The notes under the pieces: generated by a model
Seen by the model: the letters and a program-made list of their open reading frames with translations, nothing else
Databases searched by the model: none
What the model was told of the DNA's origin: nothing
Shown here: one piece after another, positions 4,955 through 55,649 of the stretch
Position numbering within the stretch: the first letter of the stretch is position 1
How the letters are laid out: each line of letters starts with the position of its first letter
Position numbers and translations under genes: made by a program
From: a phage
NCBI GenBank assembly: GCA_027263115.1
Contig: GCA_027263115.1_3656.1
Direction: 5' to 3' (one strand)
DNA: 64,000 nucleotides

Positions 4955-4955
4955 G

Positions 4956-5573: not shown

Positions 5574-5574
5574 A

Positions 5575-5620: not shown

Positions 5621-5662
5621 TTTATACTGTTAACACTGAACTAATGCATAGGAGTTAAAACC

Positions 5663-5908: not shown

Positions 5909-5983
5909 GCTGGTTTTTCGGTGGTCCTGGTAGCAGGGCCATCTATAAAGATAGTTTATCAACACAATGAAAGGAGAAAGTAC

Positions 5984-6331
5984 ATGATCAGCGGGGCTAG
6001 TTTTATTATTGGCGCTATTGCTACGGCTTTAATTGTAAACAAGATCCAGGATAAAAAGGAAAGTACCGCCCTTGCAGAATATCCATTTTGGACATTCAAC
6101 GATAATGAAGATTATATTATAAAGTATAAAAATAAAGAAGGTGACCAAGTAACACCGCGACCGATCCCGGCTTACAAAATGCAGGAAACACTGTACCGCC
6201 TGGAAGCGGGGGGCGCAAAAATTGTAGACTTTTGGGGATACGATCACACAGATCAGGAAGTTATAAAGCGCCGTATCCGGGCTATTCAGGCCAATATTGA
6301 AGTTAGCAAGGGGGGAATATATGAAGATTAA
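5984..6331 (+). CDS. hypothetical membrane-anchored protein
   Basis: ATG after AAAGGAGAAAG (start trimmed from track ORF 5921); N-terminal hydrophobic helix. Confidence 0.55.
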   Translation: MISGASFIIGAIATALIVNKIQDKKESTALAEYPFWTFNDNEDYIIKYKNKEGDQVTPRPIPAYKMQETLYRLEAGGAKIVDFWGYDHTDQEVIKRRIRAIQANIEVSKGGIYED

Positions 6332-26745: not shown

Positions 26746-27279
26746 CTACAAATGGTCGCTGAGGGTGTCAAGAAAATTATCCCGTTCTTTCTCAGAGTTT
26801 TCATGTGTGTAGCTGAAAAACATATCGAGAATAACCTTATTGATATATTCCAGCTCCTCTGTGTTCAGATGCTTAGCAGGATCTACAATGACATCCCAAA
26901 TATCATACAGACCACACTCATGATACCCATAACGCCACTCAATTGTCAAGCTGAGCGGCAAATCTTTACCTTCACAAACAACCTTCCATCTACATATGTT
27001 GGTATCTGGTCGTACCTGTGCACGGTACACCTGCACAAAATCCAATTTGAATTTGAGGTACTCGTCATACAATTTAAGCACAAAGCTCTCGATTTGTGGA
27101 GACACTTTTGCAGCAAACTGTGCGTATTTGTACTTGCACTGGATGATCTTTCTGCGTTTTGCAGTTAAATTTTTTGCCGCCAGTTGTTCTTCAGTGTATC
27201 TCCACCTACGATCAACAAACGCAACAGGGTCTTTGTCCCCATAGAGGTCTTCCCAGTTAATCAGAAGCATACCTGTCAC
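26746..27279 (-). CDS. hypothetical protein
   Basis: 177 aa. Confidence 0.6.
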   Translation of the reverse strand: MTGMLLINWEDLYGDKDPVAFVDRRWRYTEEQLAAKNLTAKRRKIIQCKYKYAQFAAKVSPQIESFVLKLYDEYLKFKLDFVQVYRAQVRPDTNICRWKVVCEGKDLPLSLTIEWRYGYHECGLYDIWDVIVDPAKHLNTEELEYINKVILDMFFSYTHENSEKERDNFLDTLSDHL

Positions 27280-28217: not shown

Positions 28218-28502
28218 CTACCAGGTTACTGTCAAGTAGGCAACCGTATTATTTTTCTCTGGGGAGATGCCAACAACATCTACCTGCAGACCTCCTGCCC
28301 TTAAATCTCCAACAATGTGCGGGAAGTAATCTGAGAGATGCGAGGGTAGATTTATCGAAAATCCGCACCCCAGAAAGCCTGCTAACGCTTTATTTTGTAT
28401 CTCCCCTACAATCGCATCATAAATGGAGTTAAGCTCGTCAGGGAGCGTTACAGGGCGTTTTAGCGCTAGCTGGTGTAATTTGTCCTTAGCACTCATTTTC
28501 AT
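28218..28502 (-). CDS. hypothetical protein
   Basis: Internal ATG adjacent to stop of upstream methyltransferase gene. Confidence 0.5.
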   Translation of the reverse strand: MKMSAKDKLHQLALKRPVTLPDELNSIYDAIVGEIQNKALAGFLGCGFSINLPSHLSDYFPHIVGDLRAGGLQVDVVGISPEKNNTVAYLTVTW

Positions 28503-29032
28503 TTCAGGTCTACCTCTGGGGGTGCCAACCACATAAACGGCGGCAAGTCTAAACGGTTTTTCTTATCCCACACAAAATATGCATATGCTTGCCCGTCAGT
28601 TCTGCCGTTTGATTGAAATGATGGACGCTTAGATATTGTGATCACAGTAGTAGGTGCATTATCAAGCCACCATTCAAATCTGGCTTTGCTTTCCAGAAAA
28701 TTAAGACGCAAAAGCATAATAACTACGTCAGCATCTTTCAACGCCTTGTCTACAAACTCACGAGCCAGGCTGTATGGTGGGTTGGTGATAATACAGTCAA
28801 CATGGTTGTATTCTGTATTCAGATAGTCAACACCTTCTTGTATTTCTCCCCATGCAGATCCTAACGGCATACGGGAGTAGAACACACCTGAGGCACTATT
28901 CCTGCAAGGCTCTAAGTAGGTCCAGTCTTCTGGGAACGGAATAAGGTCATACAGCCCTTCTGCACACCACTCCGGTGTCACATACTCATCGTAGGCGTTA
29001 CGTTGTTCATCAGGTTTTCTAGCACAAGTCAT
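28499..29032 (-). CDS. DNA N6-adenine methyltransferase (small, Dam-like)
   Basis: 177 aa; catalytic IITNPPYS motif. Confidence 0.7.
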   Translation of the reverse strand: MTCARKPDEQRNAYDEYVTPEWCAEGLYDLIPFPEDWTYLEPCRNSASGVFYSRMPLGSAWGEIQEGVDYLNTEYNHVDCIITNPPYSLAREFVDKALKDADVVIMLLRLNFLESKARFEWWLDNAPTTVITISKRPSFQSNGRTDGQAYAYFVWDKKNRLDLPPFMWLAPPEVDLK

Positions 29033-29045
29033 GCAAATCTCCAGA

Positions 29046-29068
29046 TCATAAAAGCCCTCCGAAGAGGG
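29046..29068 (-). terminator. rho-independent terminator (minus strand)
   Basis: AAAGCCCTC-TTCG-GAGGGCTTT hairpin followed by TTTTAT on minus strand. Confidence 0.55.
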
Positions 29069-29083
29069 CTTTAGAATTAATGT

Positions 29084-30133
29084 TTAAGCTTCTTCGACAA
29101 TTCCTGCACCCAGGATTTTTTCATTGAGCTCTTTTGCTGTTTTAATAATATTGTCCACCAGACGCTTGCGAGTCTTATCTTTCACCTTAACCTCTTCACC
29201 GCCGTTCAGAGTAGTCTTCAATTGAGACAGAATATCCTGAAGTTCAACGACAGAGAATCTCTGCAGATCTTCTGAAGTAATCTCACTCAGGGCAATTCTG
29301 ACGGTCTCGCCACTTTCCATCTGCAGATTCAGGAACACAGTGTGAACATCACCTTTCGAACCACCCGCTTTTGCAGATTCAACAGCATGAACTAACTCAT
29401 CTAAAGATGTGCACTGGTGAATCTCCGGAAGACCTGCTTCACCTAACACGCCTTCTTCATCACCTTTTGCCAGAAGCTTTTTCGGTTTTTGTCCGTTCTG
29501 GATGCGTTGTATGTTGCCTTCATCCAGAATAATAGCTCCAGTGCGTGCTGCCAGCTCTTCTCCGTCCAACCACACTTCGCCACCAGCTGTGATGGATGCG
29601 ATCTCATCTTCTGTCAGCACCCCACCGTAGTATTTTTCGATCAGGCGTTCAAAACGTTTTTTCCAGTAGCTGACCTGAGTATTCATGTTCACACCGTTAC
29701 CATAAGTGCCACCTTGATAGTAGTGGAACATAAACTCTGTGTCCGGAGCCACAGTACGTTCTTTACAACCAAGCCATAAGATTGTTCCAGCAGAGCAGCA
29801 CATCCCTTCAGCATGTGCAACAACGCTTGCCTGAGACTCTCGGAATGCCTGCAGATAAGCCATTGCAATGTGCACGCAACCCCCAGGGCTATTGATGATC
29901 ACCCGAATGCTTTCTTCCGGCTGAGCCATACGGATCGTCTGCAGACGAGACATATGATCTTGTAAGTCTTCCAAATCGTCGATATAAAGAACGTGGTCAA
30001 CAACAGGTGTTGGGTAGCTGTATGTTTCCATGATACCGCCCGGCATACCAAACATTTTATTACTCATAGGTTCGAAACCGTTCTGTTTTTCTTTCATGCC
30101 GTGTACCATGGTGCTGCGAGGTGTTAAATTCAT
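29084..30133 (-). CDS. ClpP/S49-like serine peptidase with C-terminal extension
   Basis: 349 aa; VINSPGGCVHIA, GMCCSAGTIL (Ser), FHYYQGG (His) resemble ClpP-family motifs. Confidence 0.6.
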   Translation of the reverse strand: MNLTPRSTMVHGMKEKQNGFEPMSNKMFGMPGGIMETYSYPTPVVDHVLYIDDLEDLQDHMSRLQTIRMAQPEESIRVIINSPGGCVHIAMAYLQAFRESQASVVAHAEGMCCSAGTILWLGCKERTVAPDTEFMFHYYQGGTYGNGVNMNTQVSYWKKRFERLIEKYYGGVLTEDEIASITAGGEVWLDGEELAARTGAIILDEGNIQRIQNGQKPKKLLAKGDEEGVLGEAGLPEIHQCTSLDELVHAVESAKAGGSKGDVHTVFLNLQMESGETVRIALSEITSEDLQRFSVVELQDILSQLKTTLNGGEEVKVKDKTRKRLVDNIIKTAKELNEKILGAGIVEEA

Positions 30134-30193
30134 GAGAAATCCTTAATATTGGAAGTTGAAAGCTATTTATTTAAACCTGATTCACATTTACCT

Positions 30194-30505
30194 TTATTTA
30201 GCAATCACTATGGAATACTTACGATTGTCAGAAGCATCACAGCTCAATGATTGCCAGTCTACCACATACCACGTATCATTGTCAACAATTACTTTATCGC
30301 CTGTTCTGTAGCAGGTGCTGCTTTCAATAATCCGAGACTCGATAAAGAATCTGTGTCGGCGCTCACGTAGCAACGCTAAGTTGATTATATTACCACCACT
30401 GTCCTTGATCCACACATTCTTGGATCCTTTATTTGCCAAAATTGTCTCGCCGTTATAGACAAACAGGCAGTATATTTTATTCAGTCTCTCTTGTATTGTA
30501 GCCAT
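30194..30505 (-). CDS. hypothetical protein
   Basis: 103 aa. Confidence 0.55.
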   Translation of the reverse strand: MATIQERLNKIYCLFVYNGETILANKGSKNVWIKDSGGNIINLALLRERRHRFFIESRIIESSTCYRTGDKVIVDNDTWYVVDWQSLSCDASDNRKYSIVIAK

Positions 30506-30608
30506 ACTATCTCCTTCTCCTTGTCTTGTCCGATAATAATATCTAAAGCTTACCTGTTTGTCAACAACTGTTTTAGATATTTAAGGGTGGAATAACCACC
30601 CTTCTGTA

Positions 30609-31397
30609 TTACTCGGAAACAGGGGTCCAAATATGATTTGCACGATCCTCAATAAGATTGAGTGCAATCTGACGACCCAACCCGGAACGAACAACATCGT
30701 CTGGACTATCAAAGCTGATCATTCCAACCTCAGGGTCTGGATGACGAGTAAAGAAATCCGTCACCCATGCAAGGCCAGATTTACCAGGGATGTCACGTTG
30801 GCTATTATCGCCCATAATTACAAGGGTGGCCTGATCAGAGATCCTTGTGATAATTGACAACATTTCTTCAGGGTTAGTTTGCTGTGCCTCGTCAATCAGG
30901 ACAAAGCATCGCTCATCGAAACTACGACCACGAATGCTTTCAACCTCACAAATCTCGATACGGCTGTTCTGACCGTCTCCCAGCATTGCGGCAAAAGCAC
31001 CTTTGCCAACACGACGACAAATCGTGTCCATCATGCTTCGAAGATAGGGCCACAGTTTCTGCATTGCATTTCCAGGTTTAAATCCTGAAGTCTTTCCTGT
31101 CTGAACGTAAGGACGTGCAACAATGATCTTATCAATCTCGTTCTTACGCAGAAGATCACCTGCATATGCAGATGCCATGAATGTCTTACCGGATCCAAAC
31201 ACACCGTTTACAATGATAATCTTACGTGACCCTAGATAATCAAGATACTTTTGCTGCTTCTTATTCATTGGTCGGAGAGCTGGAGCGGTGTGCTCTCTTT
31301 CGTCAGCAAATTTCTCAGCAGCCTTGCGCAGGCGATCAGATTTGCGAGCCTCTCTAGCTTCATCACGCATGCGTTTTGTTTCTTTAGCTCGACCCAT
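30609..31397 (-). CDS. phoH: PhoH-like ATPase
   Basis: 262 aa; Walker A GVFGSGKTF and PhoH-like overall pattern. Confidence 0.85.
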   Translation of the reverse strand: MGRAKETKRMRDEAREARKSDRLRKAAEKFADEREHTAPALRPMNKKQQKYLDYLGSRKIIIVNGVFGSGKTFMASAYAGDLLRKNEIDKIIVARPYVQTGKTSGFKPGNAMQKLWPYLRSMMDTICRRVGKGAFAAMLGDGQNSRIEICEVESIRGRSFDERCFVLIDEAQQTNPEEMLSIITRISDQATLVIMGDNSQRDIPGKSGLAWVTDFFTRHPDPEVGMISFDSPDDVVRSGLGRQIALNLIEDRANHIWTPVSE

Positions 31398-31435
31398 GTT
31401 GGGACTCCTTTCAGATTGAGATGTGCCAAGTACTT

Positions 31436-31786
31436 TTACTGCAACAGTTTTTCAATAGCCGCTTCCATGCTGCTTGCAACAGCCTGAACTCGGATATTCA
31501 TCTCTTCTTGGTGGATCAGCTCCTTAAGCTCTTTAATGGTAAATTCTTTAGAGAAACCTTCCACCATAATCTTGTGTAAGGCTTCTTGCGTATCTACTTG
31601 CAAGAACTTTTCCAGTTTGTTGGCAGAGGCTTCTAAATCAGCCCGAATGCGAGGGTCATCTGTGCGATTCAGCATTAGGCGTAAGCCATCAAGATTAGTA
31701 GAAATAGCGTCTGCATGTTGAGTAACTAACCGTGGCAAAATGAGATCTACAAACTTATTAGCCAAATCGATACGTTCTTGTGTCAC
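31436..31786 (-). CDS. hypothetical protein
   Basis: 116 aa, GTG start overlapping stop of upstream micro-ORF. Confidence 0.5.
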   Translation of the reverse strand: MTQERIDLANKFVDLILPRLVTQHADAISTNLDGLRLMLNRTDDPRIRADLEASANKLEKFLQVDTQEALHKIMVEGFSKEFTIKELKELIHQEEMNIRVQAVASSMEAAIEKLLQ

Positions 31787-31896
31787 TGTTGCACCCCCTC
31801 TTCATCCTCATGATGTTTCTTTTCACGCTTGTGTTTTTTCTTGAGCTCAAGCGCAATTTCTTTTTTGTACGCCTTCTTCAAGGCTTTTTTAGCCAT
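31783..31896 (-). CDS. small highly basic protein (37 aa)
   Basis: ATG after GAGGAGGTG; Lys-rich; GTGA coupling with downstream gene. Confidence 0.45.
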   Translation of the reverse strand: MAKKALKKAYKKEIALELKKKHKREKKHHEDEEGVQQ

Positions 31897-31960
31897 TTGG
31901 CACCTCCTCTGCTTTCATTTTACGATAATTATACCTATCTAAACAAAGCTTTGTCAACAG

Positions 31961-32434
31961 CTAGTCTACCTGAACCCAACCGCCTGATACTTTTTTAAAC
32001 ATTCTTTGGTTATCACTGCCTCGGAACGGTTTCTTGGTTGGTAAATCTTTTACATACTTACCGTCAATGATGATATCAGCCAGTTTAAGAACATCACTAG
32101 AGATATGGTCAAATGTGAACCCAGTATATACAAGAATAGTTTTCTTGTCACCAAATTTTTCCTTAATTTTCTCCATCAGGCTAATAATATCTGGCTCATT
32201 ATAGTATGCTAAGGGTTCTCCACCCAGCAGAGAGATACCGCACACAGACGGGTTATCTAAATCTGACAAGATTTTTTGCAAGTCTTCTTCAGTAAACTCT
32301 CTCCCCTTATCTTTTGACCAAAATGCCTGATTAAAGCAACCAGGGCAAGCGTGTGGGCACCCAGATACCCATAAGGCAGTTCTAATACCTGGCCCTTCGG
32401 TGTAAGATATTTCTGTGTATCCGGCAATATTCAT
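31961..32434 (-). CDS. nrdG: anaerobic ribonucleotide reductase activating protein (radical SAM)
   Basis: 157 aa; CPHACPGC radical-SAM cysteine cluster; adjacent to nrdD. Confidence 0.85.
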   Translation of the reverse strand: MNIAGYTEISYTEGPGIRTALWVSGCPHACPGCFNQAFWSKDKGREFTEEDLQKILSDLDNPSVCGISLLGGEPLAYYNEPDIISLMEKIKEKFGDKKTILVYTGFTFDHISSDVLKLADIIIDGKYVKDLPTKKPFRGSDNQRMFKKVSGGWVQVD

Positions 32435-32547
32435 AGATACTCCGCATCACATTTAGGGCAATGCCAAATAAAATCGTCCAGTGCCTTGCACCAACGAAGA
32501 TTGCAACGACAACCACACTTGCAAATTTTATAAATACCTGTAGACAT
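32431..32547 (-). CDS. small cysteine-rich protein (38 aa, 7 Cys)
   Basis: ATG after AGGAGGT; ATGA coupling with nrdG start; sits between nrdD and nrdG. Confidence 0.5.
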   Translation of the reverse strand: MSTGIYKICKCGCRCNLRWCKALDDFIWHCPKCDAEYL

Positions 32548-32610
32548 ACTGTACCTCCTAGCTCACTGTGTGTCAATAATATGCCACATCCTTGTGGCTT
32601 TTGTCAAGTA

Positions 32611-34734
32611 TCAGCAACCACAACTTCCGTAGTGCTTAACCCGTTCTATAACTTCCGCTTGCTTACCTTTATTGTAAGGACGGGAGTTTGGACTAGACAG
32701 GTACCCGGATACACGTCTGATCACACTGATCGTTCCCTCTTCATGGTTTCCACACTCTGGGCATACAAAGCCTTTAGCTGTTGCACTAAACTCACCAGAG
32801 AAACCACACTTGAGACATTTATCCACAGGTTGGTTAATACCAAAATACATAATGTGTTTATACCCGAAGTCAACAAGAGCCTCTAAAGCATCCAGGTTGT
32901 TTTTCAGATTTGGTGTCTCTACGTATCCGATGTTGCCACCAGAGGAGATCATAGCAAAACCTTCTTCATACTTCCACTTATCAAAAGGAGAGCTATTGAT
33001 CCATACTGGCTGATGGAAACTGTTGGTGAGATATTCATGCTCGTGCTTCAACACTTCAGGATATTCACGATCCAGACAGGTTGCAGCTTTATAGCATAGG
33101 CTCTCAGAAGGGGTGCCGTACAAGCTAAATGCTAGTCTACTTTCCTTCTTGTATCGCTCACAAGCATCTCTCATGTGCTGAAGGATTCCAAGAGCTAAAG
33201 CCTTGTCACCCTCTCTGCCCAAAATCTGACAGGTTTCATACACACCAATATACCCAATACTGATGGAAGCGTACCCGTCATAGAAGAGTTTATCAATACT
33301 CTCTTCAGGATCCAGGCGAGCAAGAGCGCCTTCACACCACATGATAGGGTTCTGCCCTGCCTTGGTGCCTTTCAGACGGTTAACCCTTACAAGGTGAGCC
33401 TCGTATGCAAGATCCAGATACTCGTCAAGAACGGCAAAGAAATCAACACCTTCCGTCTTAGCTTTTGCCGCAATCATTGGCAGGTTAAGACTAACAACAC
33501 CCAAGTTGAATCTGCCGAGGTATTTCTCCTCGCCTGTTTCCAAGTCATTGTATTTGCTAAGAAAACTCCGGCAACCCATGCTCGTTACTTTACCATCTGT
33601 CGAGCCTGTCACTTTACGATTTAGTGGAACAGAAACAAAGTCAGGATAAATCCGCTCTGCAGAGCATTCCAGAGCTAATCGTTTCAAATCATAGTTAGGA
33701 TCTCCAGGGTTCATGTTGACACCCTCTTCTAGGAAGAACAGCACTTTAGGGAACACAGGTGTGATACGTTCTTCACCAAGACCCATTTTGTGGACTTTCA
33801 AGTAATTTTTGGTAATCATTCTACCAAAGACCGAGGTATCCAGTCCTAAACTTAATGTGATGAATGGAGTTTGCCCGTTGACAGAAGTTAACGTATTGAT
33901 TTGATAGAGCAAAGTCTGCATGCTGTCAAATACGTCTTTATCTGTCATTTGCATTGCAACAGTCTCAGCATCTGGCAACCAATGTTCCTGGCAAAATTTA
34001 AGGTTCTTCTCATAGGTCGCTTCAGCATACTGTGCCAGATAATGATCAATATGGCTCATAGTCTGACCACCATATTGAGCACTAGCTACTGCACTAGAGA
34101 TTTGGCTAAGGATTGTTGTTGCAACCCCTATTGACTTCGGCTTACTGACATGGGCGTTACCAATGTTGAATCCGTTTTCCAACATATCTGGATAATTTAC
34201 CAAACAACAGTTTGTTAACGGACTGATCAAGTAGTCAAGATCATGCACATGGATGAAGCCTCTATTGTGCTCTTCTGAGACACGGTCTGGCAGGATCTGT
34301 GTTGATGCAAGGTGTTTGCTAAGGATGCCTGCAAGCAGGTCACGATGAGTGTGTACATGATTGGTAGGCTTATTTGCGTTTTCTTTTGTAAATTCATCAC
34401 AAGTGCGATCCAAGAAGCCACTAATATCTGCAAGCAGTTTTCCACCTGCCTCTCTATTATTATCTCTTGTCTGCCTATACTGGATGTATTCTCTGGCTGC
34501 ACATTTTAAACCCATATCCATAAGAGCGTCTTCAACAAGGATATGGATATTTTTTACAGAGATCGTGCACTGGTCGGTTGGTAGAGTGTTAGCAACAACT
34601 TCATTAACCGCGCAGGCGATCCGGTAAGCTTCTTCTTCAGTATGTCCAGACTCAAGTAAGGCGGACTCTGCCGCCTTGATCACCTTAATTCCGTTATAGA
34701 CCTCTTCTCTACCGTCCCGTTTTACAACTTTCAC
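32611..34734 (-). CDS. nrdD: anaerobic ribonucleoside-triphosphate reductase (class III)
   Basis: 707 aa; C-terminal glycyl-radical motif RRVSGYL and zinc-ribbon cysteines. Confidence 0.9.
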   Translation of the reverse strand: MKVVKRDGREEVYNGIKVIKAAESALLESGHTEEEAYRIACAVNEVVANTLPTDQCTISVKNIHILVEDALMDMGLKCAAREYIQYRQTRDNNREAGGKLLADISGFLDRTCDEFTKENANKPTNHVHTHRDLLAGILSKHLASTQILPDRVSEEHNRGFIHVHDLDYLISPLTNCCLVNYPDMLENGFNIGNAHVSKPKSIGVATTILSQISSAVASAQYGGQTMSHIDHYLAQYAEATYEKNLKFCQEHWLPDAETVAMQMTDKDVFDSMQTLLYQINTLTSVNGQTPFITLSLGLDTSVFGRMITKNYLKVHKMGLGEERITPVFPKVLFFLEEGVNMNPGDPNYDLKRLALECSAERIYPDFVSVPLNRKVTGSTDGKVTSMGCRSFLSKYNDLETGEEKYLGRFNLGVVSLNLPMIAAKAKTEGVDFFAVLDEYLDLAYEAHLVRVNRLKGTKAGQNPIMWCEGALARLDPEESIDKLFYDGYASISIGYIGVYETCQILGREGDKALALGILQHMRDACERYKKESRLAFSLYGTPSESLCYKAATCLDREYPEVLKHEHEYLTNSFHQPVWINSSPFDKWKYEEGFAMISSGGNIGYVETPNLKNNLDALEALVDFGYKHIMYFGINQPVDKCLKCGFSGEFSATAKGFVCPECGNHEEGTISVIRRVSGYLSSPNSRPYNKGKQAEVIERVKHYGSCGC

Positions 34735-35009
34735 TTTTTCTCTCCAAAACCATTCTTAACAAAAGAGATGAAATCGTCGGCACCGCCTATATGGACACTT
34801 TCAAGATTACTTTCTAAGAAGATCTGCGGCAACGTTCTGGGTACGATTGGACTGCACTTCTCAATAAGCTCTTCTTTTGTGTAACCCTCGCCAAGTGTCT
34901 TATATACAAAAGGCAGACCCTTACTGACTGCAAATTCTTTTGCTCTTACACAATGTGGGCAGTTATCTTTACCGTAAATAATAAAGAAAAAAGATTTTTC
35001 ACAGCTCAT
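34731..35009 (-). CDS. glutaredoxin/thioredoxin-like redoxin
   Basis: 92 aa; CPHC active site near N-terminus; adjacent to the nrd genes. Confidence 0.75.
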   Translation of the reverse strand: MSCEKSFFFIIYGKDNCPHCVRAKEFAVSKGLPFVYKTLGEGYTKEELIEKCSPIVPRTLPQIFLESNLESVHIGGADDFISFVKNGFGEKK

Positions 35010-35012
35010 GTA

Positions 35013-36101
35013 TTAAAACTCCCAAATTTCTTCTTCAGCGTCGTTAACAGTTGTGTTGACGCGGTAGTCAGTGTTCGACATTTCTTGGTTCGCCGTCTGT
35101 TGCAATGAAGGTTTCATCCACACCTGCATAAACGGTAGAGGGTCCTTTGTTGGCGGCACAAAGTCTTTGTCGATGTCGTAGTAATCATAAATCGGTGAGC
35201 AGTTATAGTCAACCCATTCTTTAAGCAACGGTGAGTTAAGACCTATAATCGCTCTTCCTTCGCTGAAAATATAGTCACTCCAACCGTACTCTTTGGTTCG
35301 TACTTCATCAAGAATCTCTTTTAACTCCCCTTTTATCTCAAGGAAGCTTTTCTCCCATGCGGGATCATTAAGCAGGATATCAATGATGGCAAAATCACCT
35401 TTCGAATGTAGCATTTCGTCAAGCATGATTTTTTGAACAAGCTGCGCCACCTGAACAAAGATACCCTGCTCAGCTACTGCGAAAGTGCATGCAAAACTTG
35501 CAATAAACTCAATACTTTCCAGAGCTAAAAGTGCAAAAAGCGCTCTAAGAATGCATTTCCGCACAACATCTTCTTCAACACTAGAAGGATCCAGTCGGTA
35601 TTTTGCACCAATAACCTCAAGCTCTTGCATGTATTTGACAATAACGCCGGATCTGCTCAGAACGTTTTGGTTTTCCTGAATCTCTTCTATAATCTCACGG
35701 GCATTGGGGAGGCATTGTCTAACAATCTCTGAGTAAGTTAGTGCGTGAAGAACTTCAATCTCTGACTGTTTCATCAATAGAGTGAAAAGCTCACTATTGG
35801 TGATAAATGGTGAAAACAGACAAATGATAGATCTTGCCGCAACGCTATCAGCCTCCCATTGCCACATCAAGGTCTGCACCATCACGTCATAAGTTGACTT
35901 TGAGCATGTTACAAAATCTGAAATAGATTGCGACAAATCCACTTCATCCTCTGCCCAGTCTTGTTCTTTTTGTTTTTTGTATAGTTCAAACAGTTGTGGA
36001 TATTTTTTGTTGATAGAGTCGTACATACCCATTTGCTGTCCTAGAAACAGCGGATAGTCACCAGTTTTATGAGCGGTGTTCTCAGCATTAAATACAGCCA
36101 T
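35013..36101 (-). CDS. nrdB: ribonucleotide reductase class Ia beta subunit
   Basis: 362 aa; ferritin-like di-iron protein immediately downstream of nrdA. Confidence 0.85.
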   Translation of the reverse strand: MAVFNAENTAHKTGDYPLFLGQQMGMYDSINKKYPQLFELYKKQKEQDWAEDEVDLSQSISDFVTCSKSTYDVMVQTLMWQWEADSVAARSIICLFSPFITNSELFTLLMKQSEIEVLHALTYSEIVRQCLPNAREIIEEIQENQNVLSRSGVIVKYMQELEVIGAKYRLDPSSVEEDVVRKCILRALFALLALESIEFIASFACTFAVAEQGIFVQVAQLVQKIMLDEMLHSKGDFAIIDILLNDPAWEKSFLEIKGELKEILDEVRTKEYGWSDYIFSEGRAIIGLNSPLLKEWVDYNCSPIYDYYDIDKDFVPPTKDPLPFMQVWMKPSLQQTANQEMSNTDYRVNTTVNDAEEEIWEF

Positions 36102-36107
36102 TATTCT

Positions 36108-36135
36108 AACCTCTAAAATGGGGCCGAAGCCCCTT
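36108..36135 (-). terminator. hairpin (possible attenuator/terminator) between nrdA and nrdB
   Basis: GGGGC-TTCG-GCCCC stem followed by ATTTTAG on minus strand. Confidence 0.4.
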
Positions 36136-36140
36136 TAAAA

Positions 36141-38456
36141 TTATAGTGCACAACTTTCGCAATACTGATCTTCAACTGAACTATCTGCATTCAAAGGATA
36201 GTTCTTTCTGGTTTCATCTTCAGCCTGTTTCTTGGCATGAAGTTCCTCTGCCAAGGAGTCGCCAGCACCAACCCTAGAGTTTAAATAATACCATGTCTTC
36301 ATTCCGAATTTAGTGGCACGGATAAGGTACCCTAGCTGCTCCTTCATTGAAATTTTACCATCTTTCAACTTGGTGTAGTCTATGTACAAATCCGCGCTGA
36401 TTGCCTGACCTGTGAATTTTTGAATCACAGCATACATATCGATCATGTCGTTAGTATCAACGTCCCAAGCCGAAGTGTAATACTCTTTCAACTCATCATA
36501 GTCAGGAACGATAAACAGCACCTGCCCTTGTGGCGACTTTTTAAAGATAATGTGCTCACGGACAGGATAGACCCCGTTAGTGGTGTTTGTTGCCAGCGAA
36601 GAGCTTTCATTAGGCATATATGCTTCAAGAACGCTATTACGTAGCCCACCATTTTCAATGATTTCTTTACGTAACCCTTCCCAATCCTGTTTAAGAGAAG
36701 GATCTTTCACCACGCTATCGACCTCTTTGTTATAGGTGTCGATTGGTAACCAACCTTCTGGATATTTTGTTTTATGCATCCACTCGCAGACACCACGCTC
36801 TTTTGCCAACCGTAAACTTGCCTTATGCAAGCTGTAGCTGTGAAGTTCTGCAAGATCGTGAACGAGCTGTTTACTTTCAGGAGATCCGTAAGTAACCTTG
36901 TGGCTGGCAATAAAATGTGCAACATTGGTAAGGCCAACCCCGATGGATCTGCGTTTTTTAACTGTGCTTTCCATATTTTCATACGGATATGTCATGATTT
37001 CCATAACATTGTCAATCATAAGCACCGTATAGTATGCAACATCCTCATACTCCTCTGGAGTAACCCTCCCAGCTACAAGAGATGACAGGAAGCACAATGC
37101 AACCTCTCCATCATCAGCATCGTACTTGAAGATATTACGCATATCTGAATAGCCTTTTGTCGGGAGGGCTATTTCTGCACACAGGTTACTTGAATAGATC
37201 ACATCTTTAAAAGGTGTATGTCTATTCATCTCATCTGTCCAGTATACATACAGCCTTCCCACCTCAGTACGCTGCGTGATCAGTTCAACAGCAAGATCTC
37301 TGGCCCGGATCCATGTTTTAGGAATACTGTCATCTTTAGCAATACGATCAACCTCTGCATCAAACTCCTCCATAGACATGGTGAAGATACCCTCATGCAG
37401 TTGAGGCGCGTGCTTATAAGAAACAAGCATCCAATCCAAATTCTTAGCCACACGGTTGATAAACGACCTATTAATACCGATGGAGTAGTCCATGGTGTTG
37501 ATTCTTTTTGAAGCAACAGTCATAGGGTTTCTCAAACGGATTAGCTCATCAATCTGCGGGTCTAGTGCAAGAAATGATACTGTTGCAGAACCGCCACGTG
37601 ATTGTTGTCTGTTCTCCTTAACCCCAGCATCAATACCTCGATAATATGGAATCTTACCCATGTGTTTAATAGTGTTACCACGAACACCATCGCCTGCAGA
37701 TCTTGATGATAAATAGTAGCCGATACCTGCTTGGTTAACCGTCATTGTGTACGCAACTTCACGTGCCACACCAATAGATTTTGCTGTATCGTCAGCTTTT
37801 ATTACACAACAAGATGCATACCCTGTCTTACCTGTGCGCAGCCCGTTTAAGTACGGTGTCGGGGCATTGATCTTTAAGTCGGACAGATAAGTGTATAATT
37901 TTACAACATCGTTGATACGACGTTCTTTCGGCATATTCTTCATGACAGCCATTGCTATCCCCATAAACATCATCTGGGGAGATTCAAACAAGGTGTCTTT
38001 AAGAGTATCCTTGATCCCGTATTTGTCGCGAAACTGTTTAAGGACTGCATAGCCATAACCGAGATCTTTACTGTGGTCAATAACAGCGTCTAAAGTGTTT
38101 AGCTCGGTAAAGCTATAGCCCATATCCTCCCAATACCCTTTCTCAACCATGGTATTGTAAAATGATGGTAAGGAAGGGATCTTTGTAAACCCTCCAAAAG
38201 CCTCTTTATAAATCTGACCAATAAGAACACGACCAGCCATACGGGAATGTGCTTCGTCTTTACGGCTAACACAGGAGTCTATGATAGCTTGGTTAACTTC
38301 TTTGGTTGTACATCCATCATACAGTCGTTTGTATGCATCCAGTGCAATATGTGACCAATTGCCGTTACCGTCGTCACCGAAAATAGCTGCCTTATTTAAA
38401 CGTTCTGGATCGAATGCTACCTCACATCCGTTGCTTTTAATTACCTTGGTGATCAA
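36141..38456 (-). CDS. nrdA: ribonucleotide reductase class Ia alpha subunit
   Basis: 771 aa; N-terminal ATP-cone-like region, active-site NLCAEI, C-terminal CESC; TTG start after GGAGGAAG. Confidence 0.9.
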   Translation of the reverse strand: MITKVIKSNGCEVAFDPERLNKAAIFGDDGNGNWSHIALDAYKRLYDGCTTKEVNQAIIDSCVSRKDEAHSRMAGRVLIGQIYKEAFGGFTKIPSLPSFYNTMVEKGYWEDMGYSFTELNTLDAVIDHSKDLGYGYAVLKQFRDKYGIKDTLKDTLFESPQMMFMGIAMAVMKNMPKERRINDVVKLYTYLSDLKINAPTPYLNGLRTGKTGYASCCVIKADDTAKSIGVAREVAYTMTVNQAGIGYYLSSRSAGDGVRGNTIKHMGKIPYYRGIDAGVKENRQQSRGGSATVSFLALDPQIDELIRLRNPMTVASKRINTMDYSIGINRSFINRVAKNLDWMLVSYKHAPQLHEGIFTMSMEEFDAEVDRIAKDDSIPKTWIRARDLAVELITQRTEVGRLYVYWTDEMNRHTPFKDVIYSSNLCAEIALPTKGYSDMRNIFKYDADDGEVALCFLSSLVAGRVTPEEYEDVAYYTVLMIDNVMEIMTYPYENMESTVKKRRSIGVGLTNVAHFIASHKVTYGSPESKQLVHDLAELHSYSLHKASLRLAKERGVCEWMHKTKYPEGWLPIDTYNKEVDSVVKDPSLKQDWEGLRKEIIENGGLRNSVLEAYMPNESSSLATNTTNGVYPVREHIIFKKSPQGQVLFIVPDYDELKEYYTSAWDVDTNDMIDMYAVIQKFTGQAISADLYIDYTKLKDGKISMKEQLGYLIRATKFGMKTWYYLNSRVGAGDSLAEELHAKKQAEDETRKNYPLNADSSVEDQYCESCAL

Positions 38457-38683
38457 TTTGCTTCCTCCACTTCATTAACGTATTTATCAAGGCAGGTATC
38501 AGTATCTTGCTGGATAAAGGTATCCTCTTCTACAGAGATATTTATAATTTTACCTGTATACTCGTCATAATAAACATCATCATACATTTTAATATCGTTT
38601 GTCAGGCCGTTGAACCAAAGCCAACCAACATACTCTGCCCGACTTGCAAAACCAAGATCCTTCCACTTGGAGTTATGGCTCAT
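38453..38683 (-). CDS. hypothetical protein
   Basis: Internal ATG after GGTGGTGAAG; TTGA coupling with nrdA start. Confidence 0.5.
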   Translation of the reverse strand: MSHNSKWKDLGFASRAEYVGWLWFNGLTNDIKMYDDVYYDEYTGKIINISVEEDTFIQQDTDTCLDKYVNEVEEAN

Positions 38684-38693
38684 CTTCACCACC

Positions 38694-39155
38694 TTAGCTT
38701 TCAATACCGAATAATTTTTCCAGGCGATGCAGATCTTCAAAATTGAAAGGTTCATCAACAATATGAATATCTTCAGCCTTTTCAGATTGTTTTGTATACT
38801 TTCTTACATTAACACGATCCTCTACTGGGATATCATACGGGAGATCTTGAACAAGCATTGCCTCACCAGGTGCTTTATCCACATCTAAAATATCTACACC
38901 GTTATACATTTGCGGGTATCTAAAGTCTGCACGCATAACACCAGCAAATACATCTGCCTTTCGATAATGTGTTGGCTTATTTTTGCATCGAACGTTTTTT
39001 CCACGAAGAACATCAATACTTTTTAAATCAAACCCTACGGCAAAGAGTGCAGCTCGGAGACCGTTTCGTGTGCGAACGTTAAACCCAGGGACGGTAGCTA
39101 GGAAATCTAAAGTAACTGAAATAAATGTCTTTTTAGGAATCATAACATTACTCAT
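38694..39155 (-). CDS. hypothetical protein
   Basis: ATG after GGAGA (track ORF 38694..39194 trimmed). Confidence 0.5.
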   Translation of the reverse strand: MSNVMIPKKTFISVTLDFLATVPGFNVRTRNGLRAALFAVGFDLKSIDVLRGKNVRCKNKPTHYRKADVFAGVMRADFRYPQMYNGVDILDVDKAPGEAMLVQDLPYDIPVEDRVNVRKYTKQSEKAEDIHIVDEPFNFEDLHRLEKLFGIES

Positions 39156-39253
39156 ATCTGTCTCCATTTCTGGCTCACCAACAAAGTGAGCCATTATTAT
39201 AGATTATCTGATACTATTAGTCAACACAAAAGTTACCTATCGCTGTGATAGGA

Positions 39254-40237
39254 TTAACCTTTCACGAAGTGGTTATTAAGCAGTTGTCTGTGCTGAACCC
39301 ACCCACAAAAGTTGGCAGACCAGAATTTACCATCACGGTCTTGATGGGTTACACCTTCCTGCCAAACACAGCTGTCTTGTGTGATTTCACATGAAGACAG
39401 GTAGTAGTTTAAACGTTCCATTGCGTTATCGTGATCCATAGGTGTTGCCTGGTGCTCGTAAGGGCTTGCATGGATACGATCCCCACCAATCAATTTTTTA
39501 GCCACACTGTCTGCCTTTTCAAACGTGCTGTCAATATTTCGATAAGATACTTGTGCACAGCAACTAGCACTGATAGACAGAGCTTCTTTAGTATCGAGAA
39601 TGCAGAGCTTTCCTTCTGTGTCACGTACAGCGTAGTTAAACTCTCCGTCCAAATAAACGTGCTCTACATATGGAGTGTGCCATTGCCCTGGTTTAAGGAT
39701 TTCAGGAGTGCTATTCACAAGAGCTTCCCACATACAATTAGCCAACATCTGAATCGTAGGATCCGCATCGTGCCAGCAACGGAGATGGAAAAAATTATTC
39801 CACTCTGTGCTTGTTACAACTGTTTTCATGCGCTGAAACGGCTCCACTAAGCGGTTACATACTTGTTTATGGTAACCAGCAAGGGCGAACTTCTCTGCAT
39901 GCCAAGCGGCGTTTTTTGCAGCTTCTTTCCAAAACTCTTCAGGGGTTAGCTCCATGTCAGTGTACTCTACACGGATCTTTTGATCGTGTTCTCCACCATC
40001 TTCCATACCTCGCTTATTTACACCGAAGCGAACTGGCATTGCCGGATTCTCCACAATCTGTTGCAGCATCTTGCCGACAGGTACTGCACGGGAAGACATG
40101 GCGTTTCGGCTGAACACTCGGTGCGTCATAAGCTCTGAGTGAATAATTCGAGGATACTCTAGTTCAAAAGTGGTGATACGCTTACCTTTCTCGGAAATGC
40201 TGTCAGCAATAATCTTTGCAGTGCACAGTTTTAGCAT
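39254..40237 (-). CDS. thyX: flavin-dependent thymidylate synthase-like protein (ThyX family)
   Basis: 327 aa; THRVFSRNAMSSRAVP matches the ThyX RHRxxSxxxxSxR signature except first Arg is Thr; SD AGGAGA. Confidence 0.7.
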   Translation of the reverse strand: MLKLCTAKIIADSISEKGKRITTFELEYPRIIHSELMTHRVFSRNAMSSRAVPVGKMLQQIVENPAMPVRFGVNKRGMEDGGEHDQKIRVEYTDMELTPEEFWKEAAKNAAWHAEKFALAGYHKQVCNRLVEPFQRMKTVVTSTEWNNFFHLRCWHDADPTIQMLANCMWEALVNSTPEILKPGQWHTPYVEHVYLDGEFNYAVRDTEGKLCILDTKEALSISASCCAQVSYRNIDSTFEKADSVAKKLIGGDRIHASPYEHQATPMDHDNAMERLNYYLSSCEITQDSCVWQEGVTHQDRDGKFWSANFCGWVQHRQLLNNHFVKG

Positions 40238-40437
40238 TATTTAGCTCTCCTTGTTTTAATTTTGGAAATTTCGTCTGGGTTTACGTTGGCCTTAAATGCA
40301 AGGTATCTGTTGAACATGTCAGAGCACATATCTTGGGTGATCCTGGAGGCATACACTAGCTTACCTCCTAGATCATACACCTCTAGCCAGTCACCGTATC
40401 TGACTACAGGATCGCCACCTTTAGAACATCTGCCCAT
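40237..40437 (-). CDS. hypothetical protein
   Basis: 66 aa. Confidence 0.5.
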   Translation of the reverse strand: MGRCSKGGDPVVRYGDWLEVYDLGGKLVYASRITQDMCSDMFNRYLAFKANVNPDEISKIKTRRAK

Positions 40438-40438
40438 T

Positions 40439-41032
40439 TCAAATACCTTCTAAAAATTTTCCTATTTTATACCAGCTATTAGCGGTATAGTCAACACTGA
40501 CCTTTAACTCCTCGAATTGCTCATAAGGTGTATCTTTTAGGATTTTAATAACTTCAGGTCGTGAAGCGAATTGGTTCAGGTATTCATGCCTGTCGTCAAT
40601 TATAACATCTACAGCCACATTCCCTTTGAAATGTGTGGCGTAGAAGCCGTGGCCCTGGGTGTGATCGTCCAGATCCATAAAATCACTGGTCCAACGCTTT
40701 AAGAACCTTGATTTAGATGCAAGGTGACCTTTCTTGCATACCGAGATAAATGCAAGCTTGTGACCACGAGCCACCAAATCTTTCATAACCTCAATAGCCC
40801 CCTCTTCAGGCTTAAGAAAGTCGTAGAGGAACGGATCACTCCAGAAATCAAAAGGTCCTATGATGTTTTCTTTGGGGCGATCAGGCCAATACTTTGACAG
40901 ATCGTAATACATCAGCCCATTAGAAGGTTTAACGACTGTCTTACTGGCTGGACCATACAAACGCTCCAACCACTCCCACCATGCTGTTCCTGAATCTACC
41001 AGTGTCAAATCTACATCAATTCCGATTAACAT
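40439..41032 (-). CDS. HAD-superfamily phosphatase (5'-nucleotidase-like)
   Basis: 197 aa; N-terminal IGIDVDLTLVDS (DxDxT motif). Confidence 0.6.
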   Translation of the reverse strand: MLIGIDVDLTLVDSGTAWWEWLERLYGPASKTVVKPSNGLMYYDLSKYWPDRPKENIIGPFDFWSDPFLYDFLKPEEGAIEVMKDLVARGHKLAFISVCKKGHLASKSRFLKRWTSDFMDLDDHTQGHGFYATHFKGNVAVDVIIDDRHEYLNQFASRPEVIKILKDTPYEQFEELKVSVDYTANSWYKIGKFLEGI

Positions 41033-41640
41033 TCTTCTTGGGCCTCTTTAGCATCAATATACTTGCACACAATCTCCGATGCACATTCCCAAGGTGCACC
41101 TTCAGGATTTACAACATCGAACTCAATCCCTTTTATTCCGTTATTTTCCAGACTTAGATAGGTTCTGGAATCATTTCCCCAGTCATATCCGACACGGTGA
41201 ATACGGAACAACAACAGATCTCCACCTGTGCTGTATGCGTACTCGCTAAGGCATGCCAGCTCCTCTTTGAATCCCCCATCGGAGTAAACAATAACCCCTT
41301 TACCTTCAGGGAAATCTTTCTTCAAAGATGCGACTGCGGCTTTACCGAAAGCATCTTCACCAAAGATAGGTTTAATCAGATTTTCACTACAATGGATCAT
41401 CCATTCTCGCGGAGAAACATGCTTGCCGTCTATCATTAAGAAAGGGCAAGGCTCTTCTTTGTAGTGGCGGTCATAAAGTGCATTCCAGAGTTGAGGAGTT
41501 ACACCAGCTGCCTTAATTGCCACACTGAAGAGCATTTCCTTAACCTCACGGTGGTGTGAGTTAGGAATAGCTTCCAACAAGAGATCTGCAATGTGATCCT
41601 TACCACTGCTGGGTGGGGCGTTAAGAACAATAATATCCAT
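41026..41640 (-). CDS. P-loop nucleotide kinase (dNMP kinase-like)
   Basis: 204 aa; N-terminal LNAPPSSGKDH P-loop. Confidence 0.5.
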   Translation of the reverse strand: MDIIVLNAPPSSGKDHIADLLLEAIPNSHHREVKEMLFSVAIKAAGVTPQLWNALYDRHYKEEPCPFLMIDGKHVSPREWMIHCSENLIKPIFGEDAFGKAAVASLKKDFPEGKGVIVYSDGGFKEELACLSEYAYSTGGDLLLFRIHRVGYDWGNDSRTYLSLENNGIKGIEFDVVNPEGAPWECASEIVCKYIDAKEAQEEC

Positions 41641-41843
41641 TAAAAACCTCCGTGGTATTCTTCAACTGCATCAATAATACTTTTACACTTATCTACCAGC
41701 TCGTTAGCCACTACAGCATCGTCTTCCCAAACAGCCTCCTCAATCTGATCAAGCAATGATCGCATCTTACTCATCATTTCTGGGATAAAGTTTTCTGAAA
41801 AGCTGTCTGGAATTGTTAACTCTAGTGTCATTTCGGTCTCCAA
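41640..41843 (-). CDS. small acidic hypothetical protein
   Basis: 67 aa. Confidence 0.5.
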   Translation of the reverse strand: METEMTLELTIPDSFSENFIPEMMSKMRSLLDQIEEAVWEDDAVVANELVDKCKSIIDAVEEYHGGF

Positions 41844-41858
41844 TCATACTATGCGTTA

Positions 41859-42317
41859 TTAGAAGTTTGTTTTTACACGTCCCTTCTCATCAACCTCGTT
41901 GTTAGCTAAAAGCGTTACAAAGTCTGTGAAACGAACATGAAGAACCCTTTTCTTATCAAGGTATCCTAAAGCCACCCCTGAGAAATTTAGCATCAAAGGG
42001 GCTAAAGAAGCTCTGGCACTGAAATGCTGTTGTTCTACCCTTCCAACACCCTTAGTGTAGGATGGGTTAAGATTGTAAGTTCTGAATCCCAGTTTTGTTG
42101 GAGCTTTAGAATTAAAAACGACTTTATAGCGTTTCTTACTCAACTTATGCTCCAGGATAAGCATTCCCTTATCACCTTTGATAAGTTGAAAATCTGTAAA
42201 GTGCTCTTTTAAGACGAAAGGTAGTGCCAGTCCCATCGCCTGTCCTCTTTGTACCGCTGTCTCACCAAAAGCTTTTGCATCAGTAAGTTCTTTGGTCAAG
42301 TCTATGCTTTTGATCAT
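41859..42317 (-). CDS. hypothetical protein
   Basis: 152 aa. Confidence 0.55.
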   Translation of the reverse strand: MIKSIDLTKELTDAKAFGETAVQRGQAMGLALPFVLKEHFTDFQLIKGDKGMLILEHKLSKKRYKVVFNSKAPTKLGFRTYNLNPSYTKGVGRVEQQHFSARASLAPLMLNFSGVALGYLDKKRVLHVRFTDFVTLLANNEVDEKGRVKTNF

Positions 42318-43128
42318 ACCTGGTCTCCAAAATGTATTGTAGTTCTTTCTTACCTATACTCTTCATTCCAGCAGTCTTACCTGCTTCTTCTTGAAAAGAA
42401 GAATAGCATTCAGCAAACACTCTGTCAACACCGTTAACTAAAGATTTTATGAAATATGTTGATTCTTCAGATTTTGGGTCATCATCCCCCAATACTTTTC
42501 CAGCATTATACCCAACACGTCTTACACAGAAGTCGTAGTCATCTGGTGTGCTAAAAGAAAATAACTTATTCTCTCCAATCTCTACAGGATCCCTATTGCA
42601 CGCCTTTTTCTCCCAAATTTGGAAAACACATGGCACGTCATAAGGTTTGCCATTAAGTAAAAACGAATTCTTAGGGCACCTTTCGCTGTAGACAAGGTGC
42701 ATCGACATGTCCAGTTTGTTTGCAAAAAATATTTTTTCAAATGTCCGTGGCAAGATGAAGGCTATAGCCCCTCCAAGCTCTAGCAATGATGCACAATGGT
42801 TAAAGAATTTGCAAGCTAAGGATGAATTCTTGCCAAATGGTGGGTTACCTATGAAGACATCTGCCTTGGGATGCACCTCCAAGAAGTTTGCCTGAATGCA
42901 CGGTGTTGGTCCTTCAAATTCAGGATCTGGTACTAAATCGTACGACAGTATCTCTGAAAATAGTTTTGAAAAAGAACCCCTTCCAGCAGAAGGCTCAACG
43001 TATGCACAATTCCCATACTTATCTTTTACTTTACCAACAAGATATTCTGCATACTCAGGGTTTGTGTAGTATTTGTCGTTGGACTCTTTCTTGCTCAAAG
43101 TGCCTCCAAAAGGAAAAGGGAGGCGCAA
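42280..43128 (-). CDS. DNA methyltransferase (N6-adenine/N4-cytosine type)
   Basis: Motif I YVEPSAGRGSF and motif IV FIGNPPFG; true start probably TTG at 43098 after GGAGG. Confidence 0.7.
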   Translation of the reverse strand: MRLPFPFGGTLSKKESNDKYYTNPEYAEYLVGKVKDKYGNCAYVEPSAGRGSFSKLFSEILSYDLVPDPEFEGPTPCIQANFLEVHPKADVFIGNPPFGKNSSLACKFFNHCASLLELGGAIAFILPRTFEKIFFANKLDMSMHLVYSERCPKNSFLLNGKPYDVPCVFQIWEKKACNRDPVEIGENKLFSFSTPDDYDFCVRRVGYNAGKVLGDDDPKSEESTYFIKSLVNGVDRVFAECYSSFQEEAGKTAGMKSIGKKELQYILETRYDQKHRLDQRTY

Positions 43129-43143
43129 GCCTCCCTATAATTG

Positions 43144-55010: not shown

Positions 55011-55083
55011 ACCAGTAAAAACTTAAATATCTGTACTATAAGGGTTTGTATGTTTTATGTTCACCATGGAACAGAAACTATTA

Positions 55084-55167
55084 ACTGTCCGTGATACGGA
55101 CACCACTGTCCGTCACGCGGACACATCTGCCCGTAATACGGACACTAACTGTCCGTGATACGGACAC
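55084..55167. repeat. four tandem 21-bp palindromic iterons (core GTCCGTnAYRCGGACAC)
   Basis: Each unit carries GTCCG/CGGAC inverted half-sites; followed by AT-rich palindromic DNA. Confidence 0.75.
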
Positions 55168-55649
55168 ATAAAGAATATAACTAAAATAACTAAATAATAA
55201 AAAATAAAAGATCTAGTACTTATGGTACTAAGTACATATACTTAACTTATGTAGAATATACTAGATCCTAAGTACCATGTTTTAAATTTATTACTTTCTA
55301 TAGGTAGTGTCGGCCCTTCATTGGCACTCGCCTACGAGGGGCGAGATGCCGGGCCTCCATAGTGCACACATGCAGGTCTGTTAACATGTGTGGGAGCGAA
55401 GCGGCGCAGGCCAAAGGCCGAGCACTAATGTGGACCACCGACGAAAGCTTGCCAGCGCCGTAAGGAGTCGGTTGAGAGCCTCCCGCGCGAGTTTGGATAA
55501 AGTTTATGTGTGGAAACGGACAATGAGGCCCCTAAATCGCTCCACAGCCATATAAACTATACCAAGTAAGGCAATCGCACCAGTTTGATAGAAAAGCTCG
55601 TTACAAAGCGATACAGCGAGTTTTTCTATAACTTGAAGAGGAGGCAGCT

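Follow-up and report, generated by a model that had tools for sequence, protein, structure and literature searches.

Two solitary adenine methyltransferases of an rV5-like coliphage and their likely roles in methylating GATC and GTAC

EcoDam and T4 Dam are alpha-class orphan methyltransferases of about 260-280 amino acids (aa), belonging to Pfam family PF02086, which place N6-methyladenine (m6A) in GATC, and in P1 and Mu the phage Dam enzymes are known to serve in packaging or regulation. M.TaqI, a protein of about 420 aa, recognises TCGA, while M.HpyAXII of H. pylori, M.PabI and M.CviQI, which are only 15-18% identical to one another, all make GT(m6A)C, with HpyAXII and PabI being paired with “half-pipe” glycosylase-type restriction enzymes. 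Methylation by a phage can also be sensed by its host, as with Retron-Sen2 and Retron-Eco1, where modification of the retron's multicopy single-stranded DNA (msDNA) by a phage Dam or Dcm enzyme leads to abortive infection. Here we analyse two methyltransferase genes, MT1 and MT2, in a 64,000-nucleotide (nt) stretch of phage DNA (GenBank assembly GCA_027263115.1, contig GCA_027263115.1_3656.1, referred to as the window). An earlier note, made from the sequence of the window, had described them as lacking a cognate restriction nuclease nearby and as suggesting protective methylation of the phage's own DNA, possibly with two specificities. The two genes are as follows.

28499..29032, minus strand: MT1, a minimal N6-adenine DNA methyltransferase of 177 aa with an ATG start and NPPY at residues 84-87, ortholog of bas51_0176.
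42280..43098, minus strand: MT2, a gamma-class (M.TaqI-like) N6-adenine methyltransferase of 272 aa, proposed to be GTAC-specific.

By nucleotide comparison the window was assigned to an rV5-like (Vequintavirus) coliphage, as the 16.5 kb around both genes shows 98-99.5% identity to over 100 rV5-like genomes (genus Vequintavirus), the near-identical records including slur16, rV5 derivatives and phages of the BASEL collection. One BASEL phage is Bas51 (Escherichia phage WalterGehring, MZ501111); the window aligns to its positions 80,281-140,659 and then, over the ends of the record, to 1-6,112, and its MT1 and MT2 differ from the window copies by 1 and 2 residues respectively. Proteins at least 99% identical to MT1 were found in 109 phage records and proteins at least 95% identical to MT2 in 105 (about 121 Vequintavirus records carry MT2), and with these near-identical copies both are real, conserved genes. 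Neither is new, as both have been annotated as putative N6-adenine methyltransferases since the publication of the rV5 genome (bas52_0174 and bas52_0194; bas51_0176 and bas51_0200; rV5).

The activity of MT1 has been established by others in Bas51. Mutants of this phage escaping the retrons Asa1 and Squ1 have been isolated, and the engineered substitutions D69G, D79G and T83P each abolish triggering of the retrons (PMC12548924, PLoS Biol 2025). We found that residues D69, D79 and T83 occur together only in the MT1 ortholog among the three adenine methyltransferases of Bas51, and this ortholog, bas51_0176, shares 176 of 177 residues with MT1 and has the same neighbouring genes; the sole change, V174A, is not expected to make a functional difference. 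Nanopore calls on virion DNA (the data behind Fig 4f of that paper) gave 1405 m6A calls in GATC, 509 in GTAC and 576 elsewhere for wild-type Bas51, compared to 35, 511 and 349 respectively for the T83P mutant (PMC12548924). By our count the Bas51 genome has 703 GATC sites (1406 adenines) and 258 GTAC sites (516 adenines), and so both motifs are methylated at about 99-100% in virion DNA, with 1405 of the 1406 GATC adenines and 509-511 of the 516 GTAC adenines being called. As the T83P mutant keeps 511 GTAC calls, the GTAC mark is independent of MT1, and as it retains methylation at only ~2% of GATC adenines, host Dam cannot replace MT1. That MT1 methylates GATC is therefore proven experimentally in an ortholog one residue different, and is carried over to the window copy by analogy. 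The methylome of virion DNA by which the earlier note had wished to see its idea checked is, for MT1, already published.

MT1 itself lies on the minus strand and, as the earlier note had described, carries the NPPY motif. It matched the PHROGs family phrog_799, labelled “DNA methyltransferase” (E=8e-67). In Pfam it scored 20.1 bits with EcoRI_methylase and 19.2 bits with the phage “Dam” family PF05869 (cut-off 28.1), neither reaching threshold, and its match to TIGR01712 phage_N6A_met likewise fell short (16.1 bits, cut-off 97). Neither MT1 nor MT2 matched PF02086 (MethyltransfD12) at E<=1, and searches of PDB sequences with the two proteins gave no meaningful match. MT1 shares the product of EcoDam and T4 Dam, as known from the Bas51 ortholog, and their orphan status, but it is much smaller than they are, has motif I before NPPY and lacks a separate recognition domain, and its nearest models are phrog_799 and, below threshold, PF05869; it is thus a functional analogue of these enzymes and not a member of their family. 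Motif I is degenerate in MT1 (LEPCRNSASGVF); that the Bas51 ortholog depends on D69 and D79 is consistent with cofactor binding by MT1. MT1 and MT2 are 27% identical in an 89-residue stretch around motif IV, and phrog_799 is also matched by MT2, at E=2.6e-13; from these comparisons the two are only distantly related to each other.

The GTAC mark was left without an enzyme assignment in the study of Bas51 (PMC12548924). We consider that MT2 probably makes it, in part from what its relatives in bacteria show. A search returned 794 MT2 homologues at E<=0.001, and 82 bacterial loci were examined (78 of the 80 from a genome scan and 4 found by exact-protein look-up). At 17 of the 82, a conserved open reading frame (ORF) of ~215 aa lies directly downstream of the MT2 homologue on the same strand, the gap between the two being -39 to +10 nt at these 17 genome loci. 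When a narrower alignment of this partner ORF was used to query metagenomes, 14 more loci were obtained, and an MT2 homologue adjoins the partner in 13 of the 14. The members and loci of the partner family are listed here.

Loci L015, L018, L023, L047-L095 (subset) and L100-L113; proteins P0121-P0240: members of the partner family found next to MT2 homologues or by the partner searches.

The partner has 909 homologues, and the 120 that were listed are named “hypothetical” or unnamed, bar one evident misannotation, so no specificity can be read from their annotation. The members tested had no Pfam, NCBIfam or PDB sequence match and a weak match to the PADLOC model REase_II. Conserved motifs in the family are QxHGKxFE, PTSIK, SDARxF and QRRLQCS, and the predicted fold is that of a PD-(D/E)XK restriction enzyme. 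On this modelling the partner is probably a new family of type II restriction endonucleases, and possibly a GTAC-specific one. That the partner might be a GTAC glycosylase of the PabI/HpyAXII type was considered and rejected, there being no PDB sequence match and the fold being PD-(D/E)XK, not half-pipe. As its bacterial relatives are often coupled in operons to a partner resembling a restriction enzyme, MT2 belongs with the methyltransferases of a type II restriction-modification family, of which the phage protein would be a solitary derivative. The partner family was absent from a scan of a plasmid collection. Distant homologues of it (25-31% identity) are found in T4-like cyanophages of Synechococcus and Prochlorococcus, where they are annotated as hypothetical (phage records H206-H225), and in Synechococcus phage S-SSM5 (39819-40412) the partner homologue adjoins a DNA methyltransferase gene.

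Restriction-modification systems commonly deplete their own site in the genome of the host, and the frequency of GTAC around the paired loci was expressed as an observed/expected ratio and ranked among the 16 palindromic tetramers. In the first paired set (16 non-redundant loci, 105 kb) GTAC had a ratio of 0.56-0.63, the lowest of the 16 tetramers, with 14 of 16 loci below expectation, and random draws of 16 loci with a solitary methyltransferase gave a ratio that low in 0.8% of cases. An independent paired set from metagenomes (141 kb) again had GTAC as the lowest of the 16, at 0.57. For both sets together the ratio was 0.57 and 27 of 30 loci were below expectation, compared to 0.79 for solitary loci. 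This depletion around methyltransferase-nuclease pairs is suggestive, though not decisive, as evidence of specificity. E. coli K-12 is not known to have a GTAC methylase, and hence the GTAC mark is taken to be encoded by the phage. M.HpyAXII, which makes m6A in GTAC, is a small protein that likewise belongs to the gamma class and resembles M.TaqI, its catalytic Asn being residue 87 where that of MT2 is 85 (PMC2588503). Taken together, the depletion at the paired loci, the unclaimed GTAC mark of Bas51, the lack of a K-12 GTAC methylase and the likeness to M.HpyAXII are what lead us to assign GTAC to MT2.

The link of MT2 to GTAC is an indirect one, and several points weigh against this assignment. 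The flanking DNA in which the depletion was seen amounts to no more than about 250 kb, solitary MT2 homologues also lie in GTAC-depleted DNA (0.79), and GGCC is stronger by z-score, though equally depleted in controls. The likening of MT2 to M.HpyAXII, M.PabI and M.CviQI, whose product is the one proposed for MT2, is by description and not by sequence, and while HpyAXII and PabI are paired with half-pipe enzymes, the MT2 family is paired with a PD-(D/E)XK-fold protein. The T83P mutant also has 349 m6A calls for which neither motif accounts.

There is also a further enzyme which could equally make the GTAC mark, in Bas51 and in most of its relatives. This is MT3 (bas51_0070, 441 aa; Bas51 64456-65781, outside the window), in which DPPF precedes FGGSGTT, as is usual for the beta class. 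With a match to Pfam PF01555 (E=1.7e-31) MT3 is a bona fide DNA N6/N4 methyltransferase, and it is present in the very phage whose methylome was read. If MT3 made the mark, MT2 would have some other specificity, to be found among the 349-576 Bas51 m6A calls outside GATC and GTAC (PMC12548924), or would be poorly active in the laboratory; the experiments in that paper tie GTAC to no enzyme. MT3 resembles the Mod subunit of type III systems, however, in having LxWxGK at its N terminus and motifs IV and I separated by a long insert. Enzymes of this kind usually read asymmetric sites of 5-6 bp, and such a site would suit the “other” calls better than it suits GTAC. Moreover, MT3 is present in about 88 Vequintavirus records compared to about 121 for MT2, and it is the restriction-modification pairs of the MT2 family that sit in GTAC-depleted DNA. 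We therefore regard MT3 as a rather unlikely source of the mark, and retain MT2 as the probable one. A fourth methyltransferase, a 254-aa enzyme of C5-cytosine type with FPPC and ENP motifs and no Pfam match, is also encoded outside the window (Bas51 67042-67806). Neither this enzyme nor MT3 matches anything in the window, and because both lie outside it “two enzymes, two motifs” is an incomplete inventory. The gene for the C5-cytosine-type enzyme adjoins an HNH-AP2 homing endonuclease gene in Bas49, the phage which, by its locus tags, is EmilHeitz (MZ501062).

The proposal of self-methylation with two specificities thus holds in that Bas51 DNA carries m6A in both GATC and GTAC, with the link of MT1 to GATC being the one that is proven, and falls short in its inventory of enzymes. 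For the whole account, in which MT1 and MT2 are stand-alone adenine methyltransferases acting on GATC and GTAC respectively and packaged genomes are fully methylated at both motifs, we estimate a probability of about 0.68.

The sequence and predicted structure of MT2 are consistent with a DNA methyltransferase of the gamma class. The earlier note had given the second enzyme the motifs FxGxG and NPPF; the reading frame 42280..43128 and NPPF are indeed there, and motif I is not FxGxG, being EPSAGRGSF, of the xAGxGxF type. The motifs are DKYYTNP (residues 8-14), EPSAGRGSF (35-43), NPPF (85-88) and RRVG (193-196), the last in the C-terminal domain, and this order of motif X, motif I, motif IV and C-terminal domain places MT2, by sequence, in the gamma class. 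In an alignment of 55 homologues the invariant residues include D8, T12, E35-P36-x-A38-G39-x-G41-x-F43, G84-N-P-P-F-G89 and R194-x-G196, among others. MT2 matched phrog_5172, labelled “unknown function” in PHROGs, at E=4e-129 and, from end to end, the PADLOC model MTase_II PDLC03255 (E=3e-34). Neither MT2 nor those of its homologues that were tested gave a Pfam or NCBIfam match above threshold, and PF26055, which is given in precomputed annotation for some homologues, did not match at E<=0.01 in the five that were rescanned.

The AlphaFold2 model of MT2 had a mean pLDDT of 92.9, and a Foldseek search with it returned TrmN, M.TaqI, CamA, M.BseCI and type I M subunits, all over the Rossmann core only, with template modelling (TM) scores of about 0.4. 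With M.TaqI, MT2 shares an N-terminal xYYTP motif, EPxxGxGxF and then NPP(F/Y) in a catalytic Rossmann fold (E about 2e-7, 19-20% identity over about 200 residues only), but the C-terminal domain of MT2 (~100 aa) is much shorter than the recognition domain of M.TaqI, and the specificity differs. No PDB counterpart of this C-terminal domain was found by Foldseek.

The best of these structural matches was the tRNA m6A enzyme TrmN (E=9.7e-8), marginally above M.TaqI, and among records of MT2 are the names “RNA methylase”, “predicted RNA methylase” and “ribosomal RNA large subunit methyltransferase”; one homologue also weakly matches the RrnaAD Pfam family. These would suit an adenine methyltransferase acting on tRNA or rRNA and not on DNA. 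Such a role is very improbable, however, as the full-length match of MT2 is to type II DNA methyltransferase models of PADLOC, at 30 bacterial or metagenomic loci the family is found next to a protein with the PD-(D/E)XK restriction-enzyme fold, and the fold matches are limited to the Rossmann core common to all these enzymes.

That no cognate restriction endonuclease lies near either gene, as the earlier note had it, was borne out. On one side of MT1 is a ClpP-like protease gene, and on the other a 94-aa ORF whose start overlaps the MT1 stop (ATGA). MT2 lies between a DnaQ-like 3'-5' exonuclease gene and a 152-aa ORF which overlaps its 3' end by 38 nt and is followed by genes for a deoxynucleoside monophosphate kinase, an NT5C-type nucleotidase, ThyX and ribonucleotide reductase. 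Ten neighbouring ORFs searched against Pfam and PHROGs showed no restriction-enzyme signature, matching replication or nucleotide-metabolism functions or nothing. PADLOC, applied to the two methyltransferases and to five further proteins of the window or locus, gave no match for the two ORFs overlapping the methyltransferase 3' ends. A profile of the nuclease partnering the MT2 family found nothing in the six frames of the window, and the nucleases annotated in relatives are for homing, recombination and replication only. The 152-aa ORF was considered as a hidden nuclease and rejected, since it had no Pfam or PADLOC match and no profile similarity to the partner family. Within the 64-kb window, MT1 and MT2 are orphan methyltransferases.

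As we picture it, MT1 and MT2 would act in trans on replicating phage DNA, so that packaged genomes come to be fully methylated at two 4-bp palindromes. As is general for this class, each enzyme would bind S-adenosylmethionine, flip out its target adenine and methylate this at N6 by way of the NPP(Y/F) loop, MT1 flipping out and methylating the adenine of GATC, and MT2, with its M.TaqI-like catalytic domain and small C-terminal recognition domain, most likely methylating that of GTAC. The likely benefit, from general knowledge of such enzymes, would be immunity to those enzymes that need unmethylated GATC or GTAC sites. Complete methylation would be expected to block MboI and DpnII at GATC and, at GTAC, RsaI, the PabI/HpyAXII glycosylases and six-base cutters such as KpnI. 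In both the window and Bas51 GTAC has an observed/expected ratio of 0.59-0.62, tied with CTAG as the lowest palindromic tetramer, despite its ~99% methylation in Bas51, and this rarity fits a history of GTAC-directed restriction. Our slightly favoured view of MT2 is that it is a phage-borne solitary member of an uncharacterised family pairing a GTAC m6A methyltransferase with a PD-(D/E)XK endonuclease, and that it may have been captured by rV5-like phages to neutralise defences which cut GTAC.

Two published observations do not sit easily with protection as the role. Maffei et al. described the Vequintavirinae as “exceptionally susceptible” to the restriction-modification systems that they tested (PMC8594841), and what has been shown of MT1 by way of phenotype is only costly to the phage, namely the triggering of retrons Asa1 and Squ1 (PMC12548924). 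In the part of Maffei et al. available to us the systems named are EcoRV and type I, with no GATC- or GTAC-specific system among them (PMC8594841), and so, as far as that part goes, the susceptibility does not bear directly on these two sites. The methylation could nevertheless be real and serve mainly some other purpose, such as escape from nicking by MutH through GATC being kept fully methylated, a mark for replication or packaging, or the regulation of promoters. The reported sensitivity to restriction would suit this, as would the frequency of GATC, which is not avoided in the window or in Bas51 (0.99-1.09), the precedents of the Dam enzymes of P1 and Mu, and the clustering of 5 GTAC sites at 55216-55290, in an intergenic region of regulatory appearance. 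Against it, no phenotype of a non-restriction kind has been reported, the strong under-representation of GTAC is a classic signature of restriction pressure, and the relatives of MT2 belong to restriction-modification systems. We consider a main role other than anti-restriction to be possible though unlikely, and prefer protection of phage DNA from restriction as the likely benefit.

The intergenic region just mentioned has a structure of its own. On the plus strand at 55080-55290 of the window, at a switch of the transcribed strand, are four tandem inverted repeats, GTCCGT-N5/6-ACGGAC, arranged like an operator array. Directly after them comes an AT-rich stretch with 5 GTAC in 300 bp (the window mean is 0.57), flanked by AGATCT and AGATCC. 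From its sequence, the region could be one whose regulation is sensitive to methylation.

The retron phenotype deserves separate mention. MT1 also methylates the msDNA of retrons and so triggers these abortive-infection systems, much as the phage Dam or Dcm enzyme does with Retron-Sen2 and Retron-Eco1, though the retrons concerned, Asa1 and Squ1, are others and, in the case of Asa1, a “glycosidase” gene close by plays a part as well. Expression of MT1 by itself is toxic, and the enzyme represses the growth of Serratia quinivorans only if the strain's own retron is present (PMC12548924). An ortholog of the Bas51 “putative glycosidase” bas51_0171 is encoded on the minus strand of the window at 26746-27279, ~1.2 kb downstream of MT1 and in the same direction. 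Papers on Druantia, Zorya, Eco2 and Eco7 that mention the Vequintavirinae are silent on the MT1 and MT2 genes, and the literature searched gave nothing usable on methylomes of other Vequintavirus phages or on whether RsaI or KpnI digests the DNA of rV5-like phages.

Orphan methyltransferases are commonplace in large lytic phages, and the decisive point-mutant methylome for MT1 appeared in 2025. What is new here is a testable assignment of the fully penetrant GTAC mark to MT2 and not to MT3, along with an unannotated family of putative restriction enzymes partnering the relatives of MT2. For phage therapy or engineering with rV5-like phages, it matters that GATC and GTAC are both fully methylated in the virion; such DNA is expected to resist cleavage of the MboI/DpnII and RsaI/KpnI types and to be sensitive to enzymes requiring a methylated site, DpnI for example, and on retron-bearing hosts MT1 is a liability.

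The start of MT2, which had been left ambiguous between TTG 43128 and TTG 43098, could be settled as TTG 43098, homologues, annotations, Shine-Dalgarno sequence and hairpin all being in agreement. In alignment the homologues start “MSKK” exactly at this codon, the annotations of relatives all use the 819-nt version, and TTG 43128 falls inside the four-base loop of the terminator-like hairpin at 43136..43117. The expression signals at the two genes are as follows.

43103..43107, minus strand: GGAGG Shine-Dalgarno sequence, 4 nt upstream of TTG 43098.
43117..43136, minus strand: intrinsic-terminator-like hairpin AGGGAGGC-TTGC-GCCTCCCT with a T run, from a terminator scan, closing the DnaQ-like exonuclease gene.
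29042..29039, minus strand: GGAG Shine-Dalgarno sequence, 6 nt 5' of the MT1 ATG.
29072..29051, minus strand: terminator-like hairpin AAAGCCCTC-TTCG-GAGGGCTTT with a T run, 3' of the ClpP-like gene, read by eye from the sequence.

Two observations concern the phage and its relatives more generally. Records named “Campylobacter phage C15”, “A12a”, “C7” and so on (MG065654, MG065666 and others) are 98-99.5% identical to this coliphage, and probably carry wrong host labels or come from contaminated lysates. In the window the anaerobic ribonucleotide reductase gene nrdD is unbroken (32611-34734, minus strand, 707 aa), but it is split in slur16, Bas49 and Bas51 by an insertion encoding an HNH homing endonuclease.

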